Below are positions 8,272 to 27,578 of a stretch of 32,000 nucleotides of DNA, one piece after another. The first letter of the stretch is position 1, and each line of letters starts with the position of its first letter. Origin of the DNA: Promethearchaeota archaeon (GTDB taxonomy: Archaea > Asgardarchaeota > Hermodarchaeia > Hermodarchaeales > Hermodarchaeaceae). The translations under genes and the position numbers were made by a program. The notes under the pieces were generated by a model. That model did not search any database, was not told where the DNA came from, and saw only the letters and a list, made by a program, of their open reading frames with translations. The DNA lies in NCBI GenBank assembly GCA_048938295.1, contig JBHLMI010000013.1, positions 27,804 through 59,803 of the forward strand, in the 5' to 3' direction.

Positions 8272-9945
8272 GTGCCTAAAAAGAAGCGGGTAAAGAACGC
8301 CTATGATGACTGGGAGGTGAATGTTCTCAAACCCTATCTAAAAACAGCTCCAGAACGGACTGACCAGTTAATGACCACCTCCAGTAAACCCGTGAAACGG
8401 CTTTATTCACCAGCAGACCTCCCTGAATTTGATTATCAGCAGGACCTAGGATTTCCTGGGGAACCACCCTATACTCGTGGCGTCTACCCCACGATGTACC
8501 GGGGACGCCTATGGACCATGCGCATGTACTCAGGATTCGGTAATGCTGAACAGACCAACGAACGCTACCAATACCTCCTCAAACAAGGACAAACCGGACT
8601 CAGTGTAGCGTTTGATTTACCAACTCAGATCGGTTATGACTCAGACCATCCCATGGCTGCAGGTGAGGTGGGTAAATGTGGAGTCTCCATCCCATCTGTT
8701 GAAGACATGGGCATTCTATTTCAGGATATTCCCCTCGACAGGGTCAGCACCAGCATGACCATCAATGCCCCTGCAGCAGTCTTACTAGCGATGTATATTG
8801 TAATCGCCAAACGACAGGGTGTTGATCCCAAAGTTTTGCGAGGTACAATTCAAAACGATATTCTCAAAGAATACGTTGCCCGTGGAACTTACATTTACCC
8901 ACCCGAACCTTCCATGCGATTAATCACCGATACCTTCGCTTATTGTCGTAAAGAGCTGCCCTCGTGGAATACTATCAGTATTAGCGGCTACCATATCCGC
9001 GAAGCGGGCAGTACCGCCACCCAAGAAGTAGCGTTCACATTCGCCAATGGCATAGCTTACGTGCAAGCGGCCATTGAGGCGGGGCTGCAGATCGATGAGT
9101 TTGCCCCACGGCTCTCCTTCTTCTTTGGTGCCCATAATGATTTGTTCGAAGAAATTGCGAAATTTCGAGCTGCCCGTCGATTGTGGTATAAGATTATGCG
9201 AGAGCGATTTTACGCAGAGGATCCGCGTTCATGGCTTTTGCGTTTTCATACACAGACTGCTGGCTGTAGTCTTACTGCTCAACAACCCGAAAATAACATT
9301 GTTCGAGTCACAATGCAGGCGCTAGCTGCCGTATTGGGAGGAACCCAATCCCTTCACACCAACTCCATGGATGAAGCCCTTGCCCTCCCCACTGAAAAAG
9401 CCGCGACTATCGCACTCCGCACTCAACAAATCCTTGCCCATGAAACCGGTGCTGCTAACACTATTGATCCGTTTGCTGGATCCTATTTCTTAGAGAGCCT
9501 CACCAATGAAATTGAAGAGGGAGTTGAGGAATACCTTCAAAAAATCGATAAAATGGGTGGCGTCCTACGAGCCATCGAATCAGGTTATATTCAACGTGAA
9601 ATTCATGACAGTGCCTATCGTTATCAACGCGAAATCGAGACTGGTGAAAGGGTAGTAGTTGGTGTAAATCAATTCGAAATTCCTGAAGAGGAACGCACTA
9701 TTGATTACCTAAGAGTTGACCCAGCTGTCGAAGAACTGCAAGCCAAGAAACTGGCAGCCCTAAGACAATCCCGTGATGCTAAAACTGTAGAATCAGCGCT
9801 AAACAATCTCCAAGTAGCTGCAGAGGACATGGACAATCTCTTCACCCCCATCCTTCTAGCAGTTGAAGCCCATGCAACCTTGGGCGAGATATGCGATAAT
9901 CTACGCTTAGTCTTTGGTGAATACAAAGCACCGCAAATCTTCTAG
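8272..9945 (+). CDS. Acyl-CoA mutase large (substrate-binding) subunit, methylmalonyl-CoA mutase signature
   Basis: [24 protein letters not shown] (Tyr), [14 protein letters not shown] (Arg), [21 protein letters not shown]. No B12-binding domain, so it is a split mutase. Confidence 0.93.
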
Positions 9946-11696: not shown

Positions 11697-11711
11697 CTTG
11701 CTGTGAATTGT

Positions 11712-12548
11712 ATGGCTAAACCCCCTATCCCCCTTGAACCCCGAAACGACCCTTTCCAACACGCGCTGAGCAACACTTCAAAACTGGTATTTAGGCGATT
11801 ACTCCATTTTTCATCGCTTCCCTCAACCAACGCATACCTGAAACCGCTAGCTAAGGTAGGTGAACTCGAAGGATTAATTGTGCTAGCGGATGAACAATCA
11901 GAAGGGATTGGACGGTTAGATCATACGTGGTATTCACCACCTGGTGGATTGTATTTTTCCCTACTCGTTCGACCAATGAGCATTAGAGCTGATGAAACCC
12001 CGTTGATTACGTTGACAGTGGGTATAGCGGTCGCTAAGGTTCTTCAGACTGCATTAGGGCTAGAAGCCGTGTTGAAATGGCCAAATGATGTATTGTTAAC
12101 TAATCAGAAGGTGGCAGGGATTCTCGTCGAGTCAGCCTTTATTGGCAACGATATCGAATACGCTGTGATTGGTATCGGAATCAATGCCAATTCCACAATT
12201 GGAGATTTCCCGGATTTGCTCCAATCTAAGGTTACAACCCTTCAGGAGCAGCTTAATCGCGCTGTGAATTTGCCCAGACTATTCGGGTATTTAGTAGGTC
12301 AACTGGAATTTTGGTATGTCAAGCTGCGAGATAAAGGTTTCAAAGCTATCAAACCACATTATCAACGCCTCTGTAGAACCCTTGGGAAGACTGTGACTAT
12401 TGATGTGGGGGACAGGCAAGTCACTGGAAAGACAGAGAAAATAGATTCGGATGGAAGCCTCATCCTTCAGACGGCACAAGGACGCATGAGTATTCGGAGT
12501 GGGAACGTGGTTTCCTCAATCTCTGAAGCCACTAGTGAAGAACCTTAA
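11712..12548 (+). CDS. birA: Biotin-protein ligase (class I, no HTH)
   Basis: STN, QSEGIGRLDHTWYSP, KWPND, KVAGILVE, GIGIN, C-terminal SH3-like DSDGSLILQ. Confidence 0.92.
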   Translation: MAKPPIPLEPRNDPFQHALSNTSKLVFRRLLHFSSLPSTNAYLKPLAKVGELEGLIVLADEQSEGIGRLDHTWYSPPGGLYFSLLVRPMSIRADETPLITLTVGIAVAKVLQTALGLEAVLKWPNDVLLTNQKVAGILVESAFIGNDIEYAVIGIGINANSTIGDFPDLLQSKVTTLQEQLNRAVNLPRLFGYLVGQLEFWYVKLRDKGFKAIKPHYQRLCRTLGKTVTIDVGDRQVTGKTEKIDSDGSLILQTAQGRMSIRSGNVVSSISEATSEEP

Positions 12549-15069: not shown

Positions 15070-16467
15070 ATGTCATATCGTGAGTATGAGGAAACAGGCG
15101 GTGGACGTGGCCCTATTTTGGGCCTTGTGATTGGCATTGTTCTGTTGTATGCTTTTAGTTTCTACAATCTCTTCTACATCGCGTCACCATTTCTTCCGAT
15201 TATTATTTCGATTATTCTCGTTGCATTTCCATGGTTTGTCACCTTTTTGCCGGCGATTTCAGGATTTTTCTTATTTTTAATCTTACTGGGAATGGGTCTT
15301 GCATATCTGGTTCTCCAGTTGATGAAACGCGCAGCGGCAGGAACATTGCGAGTACTTTGGCTCTTGCAGGCTGTGTTCATGTTCGTAATTGGAATAGCGA
15401 TGGTCCTCTTCTTGGGGCCTTTTGGTTTGCTTGGGCTCATCTTTCCGGTCTTTGGGCTGATTCAACTATGGGTCTGGTTTCGGCGACGACAGAAGATTGA
15501 ACGCGCAGGTAAACTGGCGGAATTTACCGCGCAGTTATTACTTGAGGAAAAGCAGATGTTCATTGTACCCCTGGTTACCGCGGTGTTCAGTCTACTCACG
15601 GGCATTCTCATGATGGCAACCTTTGGAGCCATGTACACCTGGCTCCCCCTCATTGGCATCCCCCCAGAGTCTCTCATCTTTTGGGCGTTATCCATCCTTG
15701 TTCAAATTCCCTATTTGTTCGTCTACTTCTCCATTTTCTACATCTTTGATGGAATCAATGTGTCAATCGCTCATACTTGGTATCGAAATCAGGATCCGAA
15801 CCTTGCAGGGGCCTCTCGCGAGGTTCGTGGGGTTATGGGCACAATTATACGATTCGCTGCAGTTCGTACAGCGGTTTCGGTGGCGCAAAGCACGGCTCAA
15901 AGTGGAGGGCGACGCCAAGGAGGGGTATTTGCAATCCTCGGAGCCATTGCTAGTCGGATTATTGGAGCAGTTTTTTACTTTTTGACTTATTTCACTTTAC
16001 CAGCGATTATCATTGAGAAACGGGGTCTGGTGGCCTCAGTTAAACGTTCCGCCCGGTTGACCTGGCAGTGGCTTGTGGATGTTTACATTGCTGAGACCGG
16101 CGTCTCATCGGTGTTCAGTTTATTTGGTGCTCTATTGACGCTGGGTTTCATTGCGATTGGATTTCTCTTCGGTTACCTCATGGGCATCTTCATTACTAGT
16201 GACATCATCTTGTCTCTGATTATTGGAATCATCTTCACCATAGTGTTTCTTATCTTCTCGGCGATTCCCAGCTATTTCATCTTCCGCCCCTTGAACACGG
16301 CATACCGTACTTTCATGTTCTCCTATGCCCTCGATGAAGAGAGCGGATTCTCACTTCCAAGTAGGCTACCGAAAGCCTATCGGGACACAATTGAAGAAGC
16401 TCAGGCTGAATGGGAAGCCTCTGGCAAGAAACGCCAAATAAAAGAGCCACCTCTCGAATGGGACTAG
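15070..16467 (+). CDS. Multi-pass membrane protein (DUF6159-like; resembles the choline-transporter-like SLC44/Pns1 family)
   Basis: About 10 TMs; RQKIERAGKLAEFTAQLLLEEKQMFIVP and YFTLPAIIIEKRGLVASVKRSARL segments. The family call is from memory of motifs. Confidence 0.6.
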   Translation: MSYREYEETGGGRGPILGLVIGIVLLYAFSFYNLFYIASPFLPIIISIILVAFPWFVTFLPAISGFFLFLILLGMGLAYLVLQLMKRAAAGTLRVLWLLQAVFMFVIGIAMVLFLGPFGLLGLIFPVFGLIQLWVWFRRRQKIERAGKLAEFTAQLLLEEKQMFIVPLVTAVFSLLTGILMMATFGAMYTWLPLIGIPPESLIFWALSILVQIPYLFVYFSIFYIFDGINVSIAHTWYRNQDPNLAGASREVRGVMGTIIRFAAVRTAVSVAQSTAQSGGRRQGGVFAILGAIASRIIGAVFYFLTYFTLPAIIIEKRGLVASVKRSARLTWQWLVDVYIAETGVSSVFSLFGALLTLGFIAIGFLFGYLMGIFITSDIILSLIIGIIFTIVFLIFSAIPSYFIFRPLNTAYRTFMFSYALDEESGFSLPSRLPKAYRDTIEEAQAEWEASGKKRQIKEPPLEWD

Positions 16468-17097: not shown

Positions 17098-17243
17098 GGG
17101 GTTCTAACCTCGCGCTGTATCAGCCAGATTCAGGTTAAGAATCTTTGTGATTTCTAAGGATAGGGATTTTAGGCAACCGGTTGGGTTTAAGAGGAGTGGC
17201 TGCTGTAGAGGAACCATCCTGTCTGAAATGGAGAGTAACTGGT

Positions 17244-18803
17244 ATGCCATCTGATTTGATGAACAAGAAGATGAAAGAACTCCAAAAACACCTGAAAAAA
17301 GCTAAGCTTGGTGGCGGAAAGGAGCGAATTGAAAAGCAACACAAAGCTGGGAAAATGACGGCACGGGAAAGAATTGACCGGCTTTTAGACCCAGGCAGTT
17401 TCATGGAGTTTGATGCGCTGGTAGAGCACCGGTGCACGGATTTCAAAATGGATAAACAAAAGATTCCCGGCGATGGGGTGGTAACTGGGTATGGTACCAT
17501 TGACGGTCGGTTGGTGTTTGTGTTTAGTCAGGATTTCACGGTTTTTGGTGGAGCCCTAGGTGAGATGTTTGGGGAAAAAGTAACTAAAATCATGGACCTA
17601 GCCCTGGAAGCAGGAGCACCAGTAATTGGATTGAATGATTCCGGAGGGGCACGGATTCAGGAAGGTGTGGCTAGCCTTGGAGCGTATGGAGAGATCTTTT
17701 ATCGCAACGTAATTGCATCGGGTGTGATTCCCCAAATCAGCGCCATTATGGGCCCCTGTGCTGGAGGGGCGGTGTATAGCCCAGCAGTCACCGATTTTAC
17801 GTTCATGGTGAAGAATACGAGCCGCATGTTTATTACCGGTCCCAACGTGATCAAGTCGGTCACTGGAGAAGTCATCTCGCTTGAAGAACTCGGAGGTGCT
17901 ATGGCACATAACATGAAAAGTGGTGTCGCGCAGTTTGCAGCGGAGAATGAGGAACACTGCCTGCAACTCATCCAAGAACTCCTATCTTATTTACCCTCGA
18001 ATAATGTCGAAGACCCCCCATCAGTTGAGCCCACTGATGATGCACGAAGGACGGATCCTACATTGAACGAGTTGCTCCCTGATGATACAACGACACCGTA
18101 TAATATGAAACAAGCGATTTTGAGCGTAGCTGACAATCATCAGTTTCTAGAAGTGCATGAACTTTTTGCTCAGAACATGGTGGTAGGATTTATCCGATTG
18201 AATGGCCACCCAGTGGGCGTCGTCGCCAACCAGCCCAATTATCTCGCAGGAACCCTGGACATTAACGCGTCAGATAAATGTGCCCGGTTCGTCCGGTTTT
18301 GTGACGCGTTCAATATTCCGGTACTCACCTTCATGGATGTCCCTGGGTTCCTCCCAGGAGTCGACCAGGAACATCGTGGTATCATTCGCCACGGTGCAAA
18401 AATCCTCTTTGCATACGCTGAAGCCACTGTGCCAAAAGTCACGGTTATCACTCGAAAAGCCATTGGTGGAGCCTATGTGGTGTTAGGATCAAAGCATTTA
18501 CGCGCGGACGTGGTATATGCCTGGCCAACGACGGAAATGGCAGTCATGGGACCGGAAGGTGCTGCAAACATTATCTTCCGACGAGAAATCGACAAGGCAA
18601 AGGATCCAGAGGTTACTCGGGCGGAACGCATCACAGCATACCGAGAAAGGTTTGCGAATCCCTATTCTGGGGCAGTTCGTGGTTTCATTGATGAAGTTAT
18701 AGAACCTGCGATCACTCGGCCTCGCGTGATTGCAGCATTCGAAATGTTGCGTACCAAGCGACAAGCATTACCGAAAAAGAAACATGGTAATTGCCCGCTT
18801 TAG
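17244..18803 (+). CDS. Acyl-CoA carboxyltransferase subunit (PccB/MmdA/transcarboxylase 12S family)
   Basis: GKMTARERI, PGDGVVTG, NDSGGARIQEG, GPCAGGAVYSP, DVPGFLPG, GGAYVVLGSK, KKHGNCPL. ATG 17244 follows GGAGAG. Confidence 0.94.
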   Translation: MPSDLMNKKMKELQKHLKKAKLGGGKERIEKQHKAGKMTARERIDRLLDPGSFMEFDALVEHRCTDFKMDKQKIPGDGVVTGYGTIDGRLVFVFSQDFTVFGGALGEMFGEKVTKIMDLALEAGAPVIGLNDSGGARIQEGVASLGAYGEIFYRNVIASGVIPQISAIMGPCAGGAVYSPAVTDFTFMVKNTSRMFITGPNVIKSVTGEVISLEELGGAMAHNMKSGVAQFAAENEEHCLQLIQELLSYLPSNNVEDPPSVEPTDDARRTDPTLNELLPDDTTTPYNMKQAILSVADNHQFLEVHELFAQNMVVGFIRLNGHPVGVVANQPNYLAGTLDINASDKCARFVRFCDAFNIPVLTFMDVPGFLPGVDQEHRGIIRHGAKILFAYAEATVPKVTVITRKAIGGAYVVLGSKHLRADVVYAWPTTEMAVMGPEGAANIIFRREIDKAKDPEVTRAERITAYRERFANPYSGAVRGFIDEVIEPAITRPRVIAAFEMLRTKRQALPKKKHGNCPL

Positions 18804-18859: not shown

Positions 18860-18889
18860 CCATGACGTTGTTAATGAGGTGTATTGTGC

Positions 18890-20401
18890 GTGTCGTCCAC
18901 TTCTAGCAAGCCGATTAAATTTACAGACACCACGTTCCGTGATGCACATCAATCCTTGTTGGCTACACGAATGCGAACCGATGATATGCTGCCTATCGCT
19001 GAGAAAATGGACCAGGTCGGGTTTAACTCGATGGAAGTCTGGGGTGGAGCCACCTTTGATGCGCCTCTCCGATTTCTGAAGGAGAATCCGTGGGAACGGC
19101 TTCGACAACTCCGAGCCACGATTAAGAAGACAAAGCTTCAGATGCTTCTACGGGGTCAAAACATCGTGGGATACCGCCATTATCCTGACGATACGGTCCG
19201 CAAATTCGTCGAACTCGCAGCCACAAATGGAATCGATATCTTCCGGGTCTTCGACGCACTAAATGATCCCAGGAACATGCAAACCGCCTTAAAAGCCATC
19301 CATAAGGCAGGAGCTCATGCACAGTTGAGTTTTAGCTACACAATCAGTCCGGTTCATAATGTTGAAACCTTCGTTGAGCAGGCTAAGCATCTGGAAGAAA
19401 TGGGCGCTGATTCAATATGCATTAAAGACATGGCTGGTCTCCTTAGCCCCTTTATCGCCCGAGAACTGGTTATCCGCCTGAAAGAGGACATTAGTGTCCC
19501 CATTCAATTGCACTCACATTACACTTCTGGGATGGCAAGTATGACCTATCTTGAGGCCATTAAAGCTGGTGTCGATATTGTTGATACAGCAATCTCATCA
19601 TTAGCACAATCAACATCTCAGCCACCGCTAGAAACTATGGTAGCGGTCCTTGAAGGTACTCCGTGGGATTCGAAACTCGATCTAGAACTCTTATCGGAAA
19701 TCGCCGCATACATACATGATGTGCGAGAGAAATATGAAGCCTATGAATGCGGTATGGTGGGAGTGGATACAAACGTCTTGCAATTCCAAGTTCCTGGCGG
19801 AATGATGTCGAATCTGGTCAACCAATTACGTGAACAAAACGCCTTAGACCGCCTTCAAGATGTATTGGACGAAGTACCCATCGTCCGCAAAGAAATGGGA
19901 TACCCTCCACTCGTGACCCCCTCCAGTCAGATTGTCGGCACACAGGCAACACTCAACGTGTTACTTGGAGAACGTTATAAGACAATTCCTGAGGAGGTCA
20001 AACAATACGTCCGTGGGTATTATGGTCGCCCCCCGGCACCCATTGATCCAACAACCCAGAAGCGTGTCATCGGTGACGAAGAGCCAATTACCTGCCGCCC
20101 AGCTGATCTATTAGAACCGGCTATTCCCCAGGCACGAGCCGAACTCAAGGGCATCACTTCAAATATCGAAGACATCATCACTTACATTCTTTTTCCACAA
20201 CCTGCTCTGGAATTCTTCGAGTATCGCAAAGACCAAGAAGTCTTGAATAATCTTACTCCTGAATTGCAGGCCGCGATCACTGCCGCACTACTTGAAATGC
20301 AGCCTGAACCCTTGAAAATGCCGGCAATCCGTCGTTCCAACACAAATGGATCGAATCCCTGGGTGCTTGCTGGACGCCGAGAAGCCATGGGTTATGATTA
20401 A
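18890..20401 (+). CDS. Pyruvate/oxaloacetate carboxyltransferase (transcarboxylase 5S/OadA/PycB family) with no biotinyl domain and an epsilon/PccX-like C-terminal tail
   Basis: RDAHQSLLATR, WGGATFD, MLLRGQN, IKDMAG, HSH, PGGM, LVTPSSQIVG; tail LQAAITAALLEM...NPWVLAGRREAMG. GTG 18890 follows GAGGTG. Confidence 0.92.
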   Translation: MSSTSSKPIKFTDTTFRDAHQSLLATRMRTDDMLPIAEKMDQVGFNSMEVWGGATFDAPLRFLKENPWERLRQLRATIKKTKLQMLLRGQNIVGYRHYPDDTVRKFVELAATNGIDIFRVFDALNDPRNMQTALKAIHKAGAHAQLSFSYTISPVHNVETFVEQAKHLEEMGADSICIKDMAGLLSPFIARELVIRLKEDISVPIQLHSHYTSGMASMTYLEAIKAGVDIVDTAISSLAQSTSQPPLETMVAVLEGTPWDSKLDLELLSEIAAYIHDVREKYEAYECGMVGVDTNVLQFQVPGGMMSNLVNQLREQNALDRLQDVLDEVPIVRKEMGYPPLVTPSSQIVGTQATLNVLLGERYKTIPEEVKQYVRGYYGRPPAPIDPTTQKRVIGDEEPITCRPADLLEPAIPQARAELKGITSNIEDIITYILFPQPALEFFEYRKDQEVLNNLTPELQAAITAALLEMQPEPLKMPAIRRSNTNGSNPWVLAGRREAMGYD

Positions 20402-20426: not shown

Positions 20427-21008
20427 GTGACTCGAAAATATAAACTCACAATCAACAACAAAACGATCAACATTGAAGTTGATGGACCTACCAACGGGAT
20501 CCTCTCCATCACCATCGGCGAATCCACCTTCCCTGTCCAAGTGACGGACACCGATTCAGATTCAGGAAAGTATAAGGTCACTGTCGGCGACAGCAAGCAT
20601 ACGCTCCAATTGACACCTCAGTCTAATGCTCGCGGATATTCCGTAAAAGTGGATAAAGACACCTACACCGCTCAACTAATACCGCTTACCCATACCACGA
20701 CTCGCCCAATCTTGTCTCCAGCCGTTTCCGCTGCACCTGCAGTTACTATGTCCTCTGCAAGAGTACTGAGTGCTGTGGCCCAAGAACCGACCGAGCCTGG
20801 CACAGTAACCGCCCCGTTGCCAGGACGTGTTCTGGAAGTTCGCGTAATAAAAGGCGCATCTATCAAGGCCGGTGATGTTCTATTAGTCCTAGAAGCCATG
20901 AAGATGGCCAACGAAATACGGGCCCCACAGGATGGTACGGTGAAAGCAATTCACGTCAAAGCTGGAACCACAGTGGAAAAAGGGCAACCCATGCTGAGTA
21001 TCACCTAG
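20427..21008 (+). CDS. Biotin carboxyl carrier protein (1.3S/MmdC-like) with extended N-terminus
   Basis: VTAPLPG, LEAMKM biotinylation motif, Ala/Pro-rich linker, four N-terminal hairpin-like repeats. Confidence 0.93.
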   Translation: MTRKYKLTINNKTINIEVDGPTNGILSITIGESTFPVQVTDTDSDSGKYKVTVGDSKHTLQLTPQSNARGYSVKVDKDTYTAQLIPLTHTTTRPILSPAVSAAPAVTMSSARVLSAVAQEPTEPGTVTAPLPGRVLEVRVIKGASIKAGDVLLVLEAMKMANEIRAPQDGTVKAIHVKAGTTVEKGQPMLSIT

Positions 21009-21243: not shown

Positions 21244-21389
21244 GCCGCAGGTGGGGCCCTTTTCCTTTTCACTCAACAACCTTCCACGAGCTACCGAATA
21301 ATAGCTATTAGGCAAGATTGTAAAGTGCCAAAACCATTAAAGCAACTGCACCCTAACTGAACAAGCGAATCATGGGATGGCGAAGCCTA

Positions 21390-23066
21390 ATGGTTACGAA
21401 AGAGAAACAATCAGTATCGCAAACAAAACGTGACTGGGAAAACAATACCTTAAAAGAGACTCTTGATAAATCTCCCGAACGGCGTGAACGGTTTATCACT
21501 ACATCGAGTAGACCAATCGCTCGAATATACACTCCAATGGACATTGCAGGCTTCAATTATGATGAGCACCTAGGATTCCCTGGTCAATACCCGTATACCC
21601 GTGGCGTCTATCCCACGATGTACCGTGGTCGATTATGGACAATGCGGATGTTTTCGGGGTTCGGTACTGCTGAACAGACAAACACCCGGTTCCGATATCT
21701 TTTGGAACAGGGACAAACCGGACTCAGTGTCGCATTTCACCTCCCAACTATCCAGGGATACGACTCTGATGACCCCATGTCCAAAGGAGAAATCGGTGTT
21801 TGTGGTGTTGCTGTCGATTCGCTAGCCGATATGGAGATTCTCTTCTCACATATTCCTCTGGACAAAGTAACAACCTCGATGACCATCAATGCCCCTGCAG
21901 CAGTTCTCCTTTGTTTATACATCGCGGCAGCAGAAAAACAAGGCATTTCTTCGACCCAAATAGGCGGTACCATCCAAAATGACATCCTGAAAGAGTACCA
22001 AGCTCAAAAGACCTGGATATTTCCCCCAGACCCATCCATGCGCATTATCACAGATATTCTCCAGTTTTGTACGAAAAAAGTGCCACGCTGGAACACCATC
22101 AGCATCAGCGGGTATCATATTCGCGAAGCAGGGGCAACTGCTGTGCAAGAAGTCGCCTTTACCCTCGCGAATGGTCTCGCGTACGTCCAGGCAGGGGTTG
22201 ATGCAGGTTTGAAAGTGGATGATTTTGCCCCTCGACTTTCCTTCTTCTTTGATAGTCATCTTGATTTGTTCGAAGAAATCGCGAAATTCCGAGTTGCCCG
22301 ACGGATCTGGGCCCGAGAAATGCGAGACCGATTTAGGGCTAAGAATCCACGGTCCTATTTGCTACGATTTCATACACAGACGGCAGGCGTCAGCCTTACG
22401 GCACAACAGCCAGAAAATAACATTGTCCGAACCACCATTGAAGCCTTAGCAGCGATTCTAGGGGGCACTCAATCACTTCACACCAATTCCATGGATGAAG
22501 CGTGGGCACTCCCAACGGAGAAGGCAGCAACCATTGCCCTGCGCACGCAACAGATACTTGCGCATGAAAGTGGTGTTGCGAATACCATCGATCCCCTCGG
22601 TGGTTCATATTTCATTGAAGCTTTAACCAACGAAATGGAAGAGGAGACCTACAAGTACTTCGATCGGATTGAAAAGCTTGGAGGTGTGGTAGAAGCCATC
22701 AAGAAGGGATTTTTCCAACGCGAAATCTCTGACTCCGCTTTTCGATACCAACGTGAATTTGAAGAAAAGGAGCGGATCATCGTCGGCGTCAATGAGTACA
22801 TTACCGATGATCAGTTGGAAATTCCCGTCCTCAAGATTGACCCCGAAGTGGAACGAGCCCAGCTAGCAAGGCTGCAGAAGACACGGAAATCGCGGAACAA
22901 CCAGAAAGTCAAGCAACTCCTAATCCAATTACAGCGTGCGGCAGAGGGAACTGACAATCTTCTGCCCCATATCCTTGCGGCCGTTCGCGAATACGCCACT
23001 GTGGGGGAAATATGTAACGCACTGCGAGACGTTTATGGTGAATATCAAGAACCTATCATATTCTAA
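21390..23066 (+). CDS. Acyl-CoA mutase large subunit, isobutyryl-CoA mutase signature
   Basis: WTMRMFSGF (Phe) and [14 protein letters not shown] (Gln); otherwise the same motifs as 8272-9945. Confidence 0.9.
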
Positions 23067-23095
23067 CCATGCAAATCGTGAAGAGTTGAAAGTTA

Positions 23096-23494
23096 TTGAC
23101 AGAAACTGAAAAAATTCGGGTGTTGATTGCTAAACCAGGATTAGACGGACATGACCGTGGTGCTAAGGTTGTGGCACGAGCCTTACGTGATGCCGGTTTT
23201 GAGGTCATCTACACGGGGTTACGCCAAACACCAGAACAAATTGCAGAAACCGCTCTGCAAGAGGATGTCGATGTTGTCGGCCTAAGCATTCTTTCAGGAG
23301 CCCATATGCGGCTATTTCCAGAAATAATGCAGCTCCTCAAAGAGCGAGAGATGGCCGATGTACTTGTTATTGCTGGTGGTATCATTCCTGAAGATGATTT
23401 CGAACCCTTGAGGAAACTCGGTGTTAAAGCGATTTTCGGGCCAGGGACACCAACTGGTGAAATCGTCGAATTCATTCGAAAACACACCAAATAA
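23096..23494 (+). CDS. Acyl-CoA mutase small subunit (cobalamin-binding domain)
   Basis: [11 protein letters not shown] (DxHxxG), [21 protein letters not shown]. Confidence 0.95.
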
Positions 23495-23511
23495 TCAGCG
23501 GAGTGGTCTGT

Positions 23512-24477
23512 ATGACTCCGGATACGACAGAATTGGTCAAACAGCTGCTAAAGGGTAATCGTCGAGCAGCAGCACGACTCATGACTCTCACCGAATCGTT
23601 GTCGCCGGAAGCCCATGCAGCAATCAAGCAGCTTTACCCGCACACTGGGAAAGCTCATATCATTGGAATTACCGGTCCGCCTGGTTCAGGGAAAAGCACC
23701 CTTGTGGACAAGCTCATTGAGCAGTATCGCTCCCAAAACTTAACAGTGGGAGTGGTTGCCGTTGATCCCAGTAGCCCATTTACAGGTGGCGCTCTGCTTG
23801 GTGACCGCATCCGAATGAACCGTTTTGCTAACGACCATGATGTCTTCATCCGGAGCATGGGATCCCGAGGTCATCTTGGCGGTTTAGCCTGGGCTACCAT
23901 AGATGTGGTCCACATTTTGGATGCCTTGGGCAAAGATATCATTATAGTTGAGACAGTTGGTGCCGGTCAAGCGGAAGTTGATATCGTTCAGCTAGCGGAA
24001 ACTGTTGTCTTACTCTCCGTACCTGGTTTAGGCGATGATATCCAAACCATCAAAGCGGGAATAATGGAAATCGGCAATATTTTCGCCATTAATAAAGCAG
24101 ACCTCGATGGAGCTGATCGCCGTTATGTCGAACTCCAATCTGCCCTCAATTTAGGGCAAGAAGCTGACGGGTGGGAACCACCCATCCTTAAAGTCATTGC
24201 AACAACCGGTGAAGGCATCGAAAGCCTTGTGAAAGCCATCAAAGATCATCATGAATACCTTGTCGAAAGTGGGGAGATTGCTAAAAACCGAGAAAAGCGA
24301 TGCTGCGCCCAACTTGAAACAATATTAGAACACAGTTTTATCAGAAAATTACTGATGGAGCCTGATGAACGAGACCTCTTTGAAAAACTGGTCGCGGAAG
24401 TAAATCAACGAAAAACCGACCCATACACCGCTGCGGAACGACTTATTCTTCACCTAATAAAATCGCCGAAAAAATGA
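23512..24477 (+). CDS. meaB: MeaB/ArgK GTPase chaperone of B12 mutases
   Basis: ITGPPGSGKST, DPSSPFTGGALLGDRIRM, VETVGAGQAE, GDDIQTIKAGIME, NKAD. Confidence 0.95.
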   Translation: MTPDTTELVKQLLKGNRRAAARLMTLTESLSPEAHAAIKQLYPHTGKAHIIGITGPPGSGKSTLVDKLIEQYRSQNLTVGVVAVDPSSPFTGGALLGDRIRMNRFANDHDVFIRSMGSRGHLGGLAWATIDVVHILDALGKDIIIVETVGAGQAEVDIVQLAETVVLLSVPGLGDDIQTIKAGIMEIGNIFAINKADLDGADRRYVELQSALNLGQEADGWEPPILKVIATTGEGIESLVKAIKDHHEYLVESGEIAKNREKRCCAQLETILEHSFIRKLLMEPDERDLFEKLVAEVNQRKTDPYTAAERLILHLIKSPKK

Positions 24478-25376: not shown

Positions 25377-25570
25377 CGAAACACATCTCCCACCATGAAT
25401 ATACAATAGCTAGTAGGAGGCAGGCATTTAATGGGTTTCCCTCCGGTTTGGCGCCCTGTTTTTTTCATCGCGATTTCTGTAATCTTTACGGAGAAGAACT
25501 TTTAAGCAGAGCAGTTTCGTTTAAACGCCACTCAAGACGCCTAATACACTGAACTATGGGAGCAATCCAT

Positions 25571-26368
25571 ATGAAAATCATCGTCCCAATCAAACAGGTT
25601 CCCGAAATCGCTGAGGTTAAAATAGACCCGGAAACGAAAACCCTTGTTCGTGCTGGAGTTCCCTCGATTCTCAACCCCTTTGATGAATTCGCCGTTGAAG
25701 AAGCAGTTCGCATCAAAGAACAACTCGGTGAAGGTGAAGTCGTTATCATTACCATGGGTCCTCCGCAAGCAGAAGAAGCTCTGAAAAAGTGCCTCGCGAT
25801 GGGCGGAGACCGTGCCATCCACCTCTCGGATCGTGCTTTTGCAGGCGCAGATACTTGGGCCACGGCTTTTACCATTGCCCAAGCCATCAAAGCCGAAGCC
25901 CCTTATGATCTCATTATCTGTGGCAAACAAGCCATTGATGGTGATACGGCCCAAGTTGGTCCAGAAATCGCTGAAATTCTGGGTATTCCTCAAGTCACTT
26001 ATGCTGTGAACGTTGAACTCGCAGAGAGTAAAAAGCGCATCAAAGTGAAACGAGAAACGGATGAAGGATTTGAAGTGGTGGAATGCCGCTTACCTGCACT
26101 CCTCACAGCGACTAAAGGGCTTAACGAACCCCGCCTACCAAGCCTAATGGCCATCATGAGAGCCAGCAAGAAGGAAATCAGACTCGTTACAGCTGAAGTC
26201 CTTGGTGGAGATCAAAACCAGTATGGGCTCCCAGGTTCGCCCACCCAAGTGGTGGAGGTATTCACACCTGAGCAACGCACCGGCGGTATCAAAATCGATG
26301 GCACCGAAGATCCTGAAGGTGCTGCAAAACAACTTGTTGAGTGGTTACTGAAAAAGGGGATAATTTAG
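25571..26368 (+). CDS. etfB: Electron transfer flavoprotein beta subunit
   Basis: IKQVP, ILNPFDEFAVEEA, TMGPPQA, FAGADTWAT, GKQAIDGDTAQVGP, GLPGSPTQV. Confidence 0.95.
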   Translation: MKIIVPIKQVPEIAEVKIDPETKTLVRAGVPSILNPFDEFAVEEAVRIKEQLGEGEVVIITMGPPQAEEALKKCLAMGGDRAIHLSDRAFAGADTWATAFTIAQAIKAEAPYDLIICGKQAIDGDTAQVGPEIAEILGIPQVTYAVNVELAESKKRIKVKRETDEGFEVVECRLPALLTATKGLNEPRLPSLMAIMRASKKEIRLVTAEVLGGDQNQYGLPGSPTQVVEVFTPEQRTGGIKIDGTEDPEGAAKQLVEWLLKKGII

Positions 26369-26384
26369 GGTAGGTTGGTTTATC

Positions 26385-27578
26385 ATGCTAAACGTTAACA
26401 AAGAGGAATGCACGGGCTGTGGTTTGTGTGTGAAAGTCTGTCCCTTTGATGCCATGCACCTTGTCAACGAGAAAGCGGAGGCTGATGAAAAATGCACCCT
26501 CTGCGGTGCCTGCGTCAAAGTCTGCCCTGTTGACGCAATCTCCATTGAACGCAAACGAGTAGATCCCTCCAAGTTCACCGATTACAAAGGGGTGTGGGTG
26601 TGGGCTGAACAAATCAACGGTGAACTTCGTAATGTCGTTTTGGAACTGTTGGGGAAAGGACGAGAACTTGCTGACAAACTCGGTGAACCGCTCAGCGCAG
26701 TTCTCTTGGGACATAACGTCGGAAAACTTCCAGAAATCCTCATTCAACATGGTGCTGATGTTGTCTATGTAAACGATCAGGAGATCCTCGCCCAATACAC
26801 CACCGAAGCCTATGCAGATGTTATCGCCGCCCTTATCGTCACCGAAAAACCCAACATCATCTTATACGGAGCTACTGCCAACGGACGAGACCTCGGACCC
26901 CGAATCGCCGCACGCTTAATCCTCGGACTAACCGCTGACTGCACCGGGCTGGACATCGACGACCGACGGCAACTCGTCCAAACCCGTCCTGCCTTCGGTG
27001 GCAACATCATGGCCTCCATTCTAAGCCCTTATACTCGACCCCAAATGGCGACGGTCCGACCTAACGTCTTCAAAGTCCCTGAACCTGACGCCTCCCAGAC
27101 AGGTGGAACCAAGAATGTAGATATCAAAGTGAACAAGGCGGCGGTGCGCACCAAAATCGTGGACACCATTGTCGAAATTGAGGAAGGCGAGCTCAAAGTT
27201 GACGAAGCCGAAAGGGTGGTCTCCTGCGGACGTGGTATCAAAGACCCCCAAAATATCGAAGTTGTCGCTGAACTAGCGGACCAACTCAACGCTGCTCTTG
27301 GCGGCTCCCGTCCCATTGTCGACCAAGGATGGATGAAACACCATCAACAGGTTGGCCAATCTGGCCGAACCATCGCACCAAAGCTCTACATTGCCTGTGG
27401 GATCAGTGGCGCAATCCAACATCTCGTCGGCATGCGAACCAGCGACACCATCGTCGCCGTCAACAGCGACCCCGACGCCCCCATCTTCACTGTTGCTGAC
27501 TACGGAATTGTTGGCGATCTATTCAAAATCGTTCCTGCCCTTGTGAAGGAAATCAAACGGGTAAAGGCACAGAAGTGA
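26385..27578 (+). CDS. etfA: Electron transfer flavoprotein alpha subunit with N-terminal 2x[4Fe-4S] ferredoxin domain (CarE-like)
   Basis: CTGCGLCVKVCP and CTLCGACVKVCP; GLTADCT, TRPAFGG, QVGQSG, GISGAIQH. Confidence 0.95.
   Translation: MLNVNKEECTGCGLCVKVCPFDAMHLVNEKAEADEKCTLCGACVKVCPVDAISIERKRVDPSKFTDYKGVWVWAEQINGELRNVVLELLGKGRELADKLGEPLSAVLLGHNVGKLPEILIQHGADVVYVNDQEILAQYTTEAYADVIAALIVTEKPNIILYGATANGRDLGPRIAARLILGLTADCTGLDIDDRRQLVQTRPAFGGNIMASILSPYTRPQMATVRPNVFKVPEPDASQTGGTKNVDIKVNKAAVRTKIVDTIVEIEEGELKVDEAERVVSCGRGIKDPQNIEVVAELADQLNAALGGSRPIVDQGWMKHHQQVGQSGRTIAPKLYIACGISGAIQHLVGMRTSDTIVAVNSDPDAPIFTVADYGIVGDLFKIVPALVKEIKRVKAQK

Follow-up and report, generated by a model that had tools for sequence, protein, structure and literature searches.

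The window, i.e. the whole stretch of 32,000 nucleotides that was analysed, carries a 12S-5S-carrier gene cluster with a methylmalonyl-CoA mutase set (large subunit, B12-binding subunit and MeaB) directly downstream. The genes concerned are the following.

11703..12548, + strand: biotin protein ligase, BirA-like (PF03099 and PF02237), upstream of the 12S gene
17244..18803, + strand: 12S-type acyl-CoA carboxyltransferase (PF01039, E 5e-199; TIGR01117, mmdA-like, E 3e-262)
18884..20401, + strand: 5S-type pyruvate/oxaloacetate carboxyltransferase, 505 aa (HMGL-like and PYC_OADA in Pfam)
20427..21008, + strand: biotin carrier, 1.3S-like, 193 aa (PF00364, E 2e-19; weak PCC_BT match)
21372..24477, + strand: methylmalonyl-CoA mutase large subunit, B12-binding subunit and MeaB (PF01642, PF02310, PF03308)

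The 12S-type ORF was listed from position 17181, and its probable start is M22 (17244). Elsewhere in the window, a second upstream ORF (8272-9945, 557 aa) has the size of a mutase large subunit (compare 21372-23066), a very hydrophobic multi-pass membrane protein of 465 aa is encoded immediately upstream of the operon (15070-16467), and ETF beta and ETF alpha genes lie at 25556-27578, with an N-terminal 2x[4Fe-4S] ferredoxin domain on the alpha subunit.

The catalytic part of the 5S protein is covered by the Pfam families HMGL-like (residues 11-276) and PYC_OADA (298-459), and the protein has no biotinyl domain. In the AF2 model of the whole protein (mean pLDDT 86), the catalytic body is confidently predicted. 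Alignments with the closest solved relatives, 5ks8, 2nx9 and 1rqb, reach only residue ~450. Beyond it the protein continues to the C-terminal sequence ...NNLTPELQAAITAALLEMQPEPLKMPAIRRSNTNGSNPWVLAGRREAMGYD, positions 20240-20401 encoding residues 453-505 and the stop codon of this 505-aa ORF on the + strand. The succession of helix, linker and W motif that a preliminary description had placed there, after the catalytic domain, proved exact. An Ala-rich helix comes first, then a linker, and NPWVLAGRRE follows.

20258..20299, + strand: tail helix, residues 459-472, PELQAAITAALLEM, helical in the AF2 model
20300..20356, + strand: linker, residues 473-491, containing PAIRR, with pLDDT below 50 from residue 477 (AF2)
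20357..20398, + strand: W motif, residues 492-505, PWVLAGRREAMGYD, with the W493 codon at 20360-20362

The PAIRR of the linker resembles a (V/I)RSI(R/K)R stretch present in free small subunits (L027, P0162, P0208 and P0216). In the W motif, a short helix (492-501) was modelled with low confidence. In the model, helix 459-472, the disordered stretch and the weak helix 492-501 together have the appearance common in segments that fold when they bind.

Conservation of the tail was assessed on 91 aligned archaeal and bacterial homologues (56-95% identity). A464 does not vary among them, and at least 90% of the sequences keep A463, W493 and R498, so that these tail residues are as conserved as residues of the core. 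In the 24-row alignment of the module (A3), the W and the R are invariant. The nearest homologues of the 5S protein are 503-aa Asgard proteins (Promethearchaeota, Hodarchaeota and Thorarchaeota according to source names), and the same pattern was found in homologues of about 500 aa from Thermoanaerobaculaceae, Aminicenantes and Chloroflexota: a helix E-x-x-A-A-I-A-A, 20-25 variable residues, then S-P-W-x-x-A-G-R. Among 121 sampled genomes of the phylum, the module was present in 12 of the 13 belonging to the same genus and in 15 of the 17 belonging to the same family; the tail-bearing frames were always open, and measured about 505-530 aa where complete. The tail is thus kept in orthologues and, judging from these alignments, its motif is not a chance occurrence. 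The present genome holds one copy of the module, the 5S tail itself.

In some 5S tails a single helix is followed by two or three W-x-x-(A/G)-G-R repeats. These are found in Thorarchaeota-type proteins of 524-533 aa (P0029, P0040, P0059, P0076, P0104 and P0106). Acidic PccX-like small proteins (P0156, P0238, P0244 and P0250) likewise have two to three such repeats after a single helix. Repeated W motifs may permit contact with more than one 12S protomer.

Family models did not reach the tail directly. No Pfam or NCBIfam model matched residues 440-505 at E≤1, none of 16 tails gave a match to Pfam OAD_gamma at E≤10, and the NCBIfam 5S model NF008984 (500 positions) leaves the tail uncovered. The A3 profile, made of 5S tails and a few further copies of the module, was searched against 1.84 billion representatives and retrieved 130 proteins at a library-wide E≤1e-3, nearly all of 50-150 aa. 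Inspected by eye, the set divided into free soluble proteins, proteins whose N-terminus has a membrane helix, acidic proteins bearing two W motifs, and fragments from the C-termini of 5S proteins and biotin carboxylases. P0146-P0148, at the top of the matches, were repetitive and of low complexity, and were rejected as false positives. When 78 small retrieved proteins were scanned in turn, 30 matched OAD_gamma (best E 1.3e-17) and 8 matched ACC_epsilon (best E 1.6e-5), and no other family recurred. P0145 and P0170-like proteins match ACC_epsilon at E 2e-4 and better, and precomputed Pfam PccX labels were present on P0156, P0169 and P0196.

Profiles were also compared with hhalign. The 5S-tail profile aligned with that of the 78 small proteins (A5) over 49 columns, with a probability of 98.6% (E 5.7e-16), a figure that is not fully independent because the A5 set had been retrieved with a tail-containing profile. 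With six canonical OadG proteins chosen independently, by position and Pfam match, the helix alone aligned (18 columns, probability 40%, E 2.9e-4). The homologous tail of the biotin carboxylase at L013 reached ACC_epsilon at E 0.033, the 5S tail itself giving no match. The kinship with epsilon, PccX and decarboxylase gamma/delta subunits that had been suggested from the sequence is therefore upheld by the profile alignment, by the Pfam matches and by the PccX labels; this similarity runs through the intermediate small proteins, whereas the tail scanned directly against OAD_gamma and ACC_epsilon stays without a match. The sequence comparisons support placing the 5S tail with the small accessory subunits of biotin enzymes (OadG/MmdD, ACC epsilon, PccX), of which it would be a divergent fused form, beyond the reach of curated models.

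Tail profiles searched against PDB sequences gave chance-level matches only, AccE5 coming eighth at E 0.37. An epsilon-like profile did not find AccE5 in the same sequences, P0145 alone found nothing, and a related-loci search returned no locus related to P0145. Since AccE5 was reached only at E 0.37 and was missed by the epsilon-like profile, the binding mode of the mycobacterial LCC is carried over to the 5S tail by analogy.

The likeness to each family has its own extent. OadG, MmdD and GcdD (OAD_gamma, PF04277) have in common with the tail an E-x-x-(V/A)-A-(A/V)-I-x-A-A helix, which is C-terminal in those subunits. Canonical gammaproteobacterial OadG ends right after this helix, whereas the 5S tail goes on to the W motif; the 12S-linked OAD_gamma forms P0162 and P0208 also have, like the 5S tail, the (V/I)RSIRR and S-P-W-x-x-A-G-R elements. 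Unlike OAD_gamma subunits, the 5S tail is fused to a soluble enzyme, lacks the membrane helix at the N-terminus and has no OadB as partner. With ACC epsilon (PF13822) and haloarchaeal PccX (PF26062), the whole layout of helix and W-x-x-A-G-R is common. Those are free proteins serving enzymes that contain a biotin carboxylase, and the free epsilon/PccX-like forms sit just downstream of the beta (12S-type) gene; here, in contrast, the module ends a keto-acid carboxyltransferase, and the genome has no biotin carboxylase.

Gene contexts were surveyed in 80 loci with 5S homologues. Where it forms the C-terminus of 5S, the loci are from Asgard archaea, Bathyarchaeia, Chloroflexota and Acidobacteria, and a 12S gene is present in them as well. 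The module was also found at the C-terminus of biotin carboxylases in one Chloroflexia genome, where the biotin carboxylase is complete, and in two Bathyarchaeia genomes.

L009:3967-5460, L013:2-481 and L024:1-348: module-ended biotin carboxylases, each followed by a carrier with four hairpins

These last genes look like PCC-type alpha subunits split after the BT 'hook'. A free module gene of 59-96 aa stands right after 12S in bacterial operons of the order 12S-small-carrier-5S or 12S-small-5S/BCCP, and between 12S and the 5S or carrier genes at L006, L027, L078, L088 and L092. Membrane-anchored forms with a full W motif lie between the 12S-type gene and the carrier in the two loci checked, with an OadB gene further along in one of them. 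We suggest, tentatively and with less than an even chance, that helix and W-x-x-A-G-R form one portable docking device used across 12S-containing biotin enzymes, whether free, membrane-anchored, fused to biotin carboxylase or fused to 5S, and that, by the same tentative reading, the module and the carrier hairpin domain amount to a split BT domain. If true, the transcarboxylase would be architecturally a propionyl-CoA carboxylase with 5S in place of biotin carboxylase, and a general rule would cover the AccE tether, which was regarded as peculiar to mycobacterial LCC when described in 2026. The 5S tail presents a known adaptor in a new, fused form, and does not amount to a new kind of system.

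The carrier encoded after 5S consists of two domains joined by a disordered linker (residues 90-118, pLDDT below 50 in AF2).

20433-20684, + strand: carrier N-terminal eight-strand domain, residues 3-86 (AF2, pLDDT 80-91)
20802-21002, + strand: carrier biotinyl domain, residues 126-192, with K159 as the MKM lysine

Four hairpins were found in all 12 carriers adjoining tail-bearing 5S or biotin carboxylase genes, and one hairpin with an Ala/Pro linker in six carriers from loci with free or membrane-anchored small subunits. A fold search with the carrier model was dominated by biotinyl domains; only 5csa and 3u9s (rows 9 and 14) spanned both the N-terminal domain and the BCCP.

Solved relatives bear on the partner of the tail helix. 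In the two-subunit pyruvate carboxylase MfPC, the Ala-rich C-terminal helix of the biotin carboxylase is enclosed by two four-stranded sheets made of the CT-BCCP linker hairpins of two beta subunits, and deletion of the helix, or the A465R change, abolishes the holoenzyme (PMC5059739). The C-terminal helix of the OadG gamma subunit of oxaloacetate decarboxylase binds the association domain of OadA, between CT and BCCP, and is a documented docking element for this pre-BCCP region (PMC7274780). In mycobacterial LCC, the AccE helix lies in a barrel of BC-BCCP-linker hairpins contributed by four AccA3 chains (PMC13012033; bioRxiv 10.64898/2026.02.06.704326). Given these relatives, the predicted eight strands, the hairpin counts, and the helix-only ends of PycA and OadG, which ranked just below true module members in a local search, the receptor of the helix is expected to be the N-terminal domain of the carrier rather than 12S. 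The tail helix therefore probably goes to the carrier barrel: the carrier, encoded by its own gene, would take up helix 459-472 in its eight-stranded N-terminal domain, and helix and strands would form in trans a BT-like (helix-in-barrel) domain, with one carrier per 5S chain (1:1). Complex prediction for the tail and the carrier N-terminus, run without controls, scored 0.30 against a mark of 0.32, which speaks neither for nor against this pairing.

Such a domain has counterparts. The BT and BT-like domains of PCC, MCC, GCC and two-subunit PC follow the same order of Ala-rich helix, Trp hook, eight strands and BCCP, and in MfPC helix and strands also come from different chains (PMC5059739, PMC4673880). 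Compared to these domains, the one proposed here would be split after the hook, its helix would be donated by 5S and not by a biotin carboxylase, and one carrier would give all eight strands.

An alternative that we hold to be unlikely is that helix and W motif both bind the 12S hexamer directly, as epsilon binds its beta subunit, the tail as a whole then tethering 5S to 12S and the carrier N-terminal domain binding something else. In its favour are the coupling of epsilon to beta genes and the help that epsilon gives to complex assembly (PMC13118682), the free modules found immediately after 12S genes, and LCC, where AccE inserts a C-terminal helical hairpin into the CT ring (PMC13012033); which half of Pfam epsilon matches this hairpin could not be mapped. 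However, helix-only modules bind pre-BCCP hairpins in oxaloacetate decarboxylase and two-subunit PC, which have no 12S (PMC5059739, PMC7274780), the number of carrier hairpins co-varies with the kind of module, and the eight-strand domain of the carrier would be left with no helix to enclose. The preliminary description had suggested that the tail could tether 5S to 12S. For the AAIxAA helix this was not supported by any result, and the solved relatives bury the equivalent helix in pre-BCCP hairpins; for W-x-x-A-G-R it is plausible, from context and by analogy.

Every W-bearing module of readable context is accompanied by a PF01039 gene in its locus or genome, usually just upstream, in a correlation drawn from related genomes that represent few independent lineages. 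At two Thorarchaeota loci this gene was elsewhere in the genome, in one case on the same contig. The helix-only modules, i.e. three OadG and the C-termini of PycA, end after the helix and belong to loci without a 12S gene. As to what the motif could do, the C-terminal region of GcdD has been proposed to link GcdA and the N-terminus of the carrier (PMC7145394), and in GCC and MCC the beta subunit buries a conserved Trp of the hook that lies between the BT helix and the barrel (PMC4673880). The W motif corresponds to this hook by its place in the order helix, hook, barrel. 'SPW' was seen by eye in three of five MCC/GCC BT segments; with hhalign, A3 showed no similarity to these five helix-hook segments (probability 0.4%). 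Because of this lack of similarity to MCC/GCC, and because AccE5 could not be mapped onto the module, it is from context and topology that we infer a contact of the W motif with 12S, and by such analogy we give it slightly less than an even chance. The P-W-x-L-A-G-R motif, past the flexible linker, would then contact the 12S-type carboxyltransferase, acting like the Trp-bearing BT hook or like the beta-binding part of epsilon.

It could also be that the tail docks the carrier to 5S only, the W motif folding back on the barrel or on 5S, and that 12S and 5S meet by other surfaces, for instance through the carrier N-terminus as proposed for the Propionibacterium enzyme. The helix-barrel logic would hold there just as in the reading we prefer, the W-12S contact is drawn from context and analogy, and since AccE adds a ninth strand to the LCC barrel (bioRxiv 10.64898/2026.02.06.704326), residues after the helix can belong to a barrel. 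We nevertheless consider this distinctly unlikely: the W motif is absent from OadG and PycA modules that have no 12S, is present in all 12S-linked modules examined, and is conserved as strongly as the helix. Finally, the tail might be a self-association or regulatory element of 5S, or what is left of a linker to a carrier that was once fused, and have no inter-subunit role, which we hold to be very improbable. In favour of this, many relatives (OadA, PycB) do have a carrier fused after the CT domain, and the tail is predicted to be flexible. Against it, the invariant residues of the tail are kept in archaeal as well as bacterial phyla, the module is also borne by biotin carboxylases and found in free proteins, and in fused OadA/PycB the residues after CT align with the carrier hairpins and not with the tail (positions 456-589 of NF006761, which match the carrier).

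No Biotin_carb_C, OAD_beta or OAD_gamma was found in the genome (91.6% complete), which has a single 12S-type (PF01039) gene and a single 5S-type gene. Two weak PF02786 matches (42 and 37 bits) were not accepted as a biotin carboxylase, Biotin_carb_C being absent. The 12S, 5S and free carrier genes are encoded together without biotin carboxylase or OadB. Because the genome lacks both, one transcarboxylase complex is likely, and a biotin-carboxylase-independent transcarboxylase appears, from gene content, to be the simplest reading of the set. It fits the adjoining mutase genes; these genes were used earlier as propionate-pathway markers in Asgard archaea (PMC7015854). That the three genes serve one complex rather than two separate carboxylases, as first proposed on the strength of the tail, is thus supported independently of it.

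The Propionibacterium transcarboxylase (12S, 5S, 1.3S; 1rqb, 1dcz) has the same three-gene set and the same predicted chemistry. Its 5S catalytic domain aligns with the present one at E 1e-134, and the alignment ends at residue ~450. The Propionibacterium 1.3S has a single N-terminal hairpin, compared to four in the carrier described here.

The homology of the module, its conservation, the genes around it and the folds predicted for each part by itself are what was observed; from them we infer the two binding partners, and propose, with a probability of about 0.55, that the last ~45-47 residues of 5S are a fused adaptor module whose helix goes to the carrier and whose W motif goes to 12S, in one transcarboxylase. 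Judging from the sequences, this module probably holds the biotin carrier and the 12S core together; through helix and W motif, 12S, 5S and carrier would come together as one methylmalonyl-CoA:pyruvate transcarboxylase needing no biotin carboxylase.

The assembly of transcarboxylases and of split archaeal carboxylases is poorly known, and the role of the epsilon, PccX and delta subunits was unclear until the LCC structures of 2026. The 5S tail connects these subunits with a fused form borne by two enzymes, 5S and biotin carboxylase, and gives a concrete model of assembly, in which a single carrier would go with each 5S chain and a Trp would serve as anchor on 12S. The tail further favours the view that the propionate-pathway genes of Asgard archaea encode one ATP-independent transcarboxylase, and the database names 'pyruvate carboxylase subunit B' and 'oxaloacetate decarboxylase alpha' would need correcting.

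Other combinations of the same elements were met among the surveyed proteins and loci. P0196 (L091:993-1319), of 108 aa, has one carrier-type hairpin (RFRIEVNGKVHEVKVEE), an Ala-rich helix and two W motifs; hairpin and helix in a single chain recall AccE, which adds a strand to the LCC barrel. At the Clostridia-type loci L062, L076 and L079, a 12S, a long OadG-like delta, a one-hairpin carrier, an OadB-like membrane subunit and a tail-less 5S are encoded together, the delta having a DUF3887 part in two of the three. One sodium pump may serve two carboxyltransferases at these loci.
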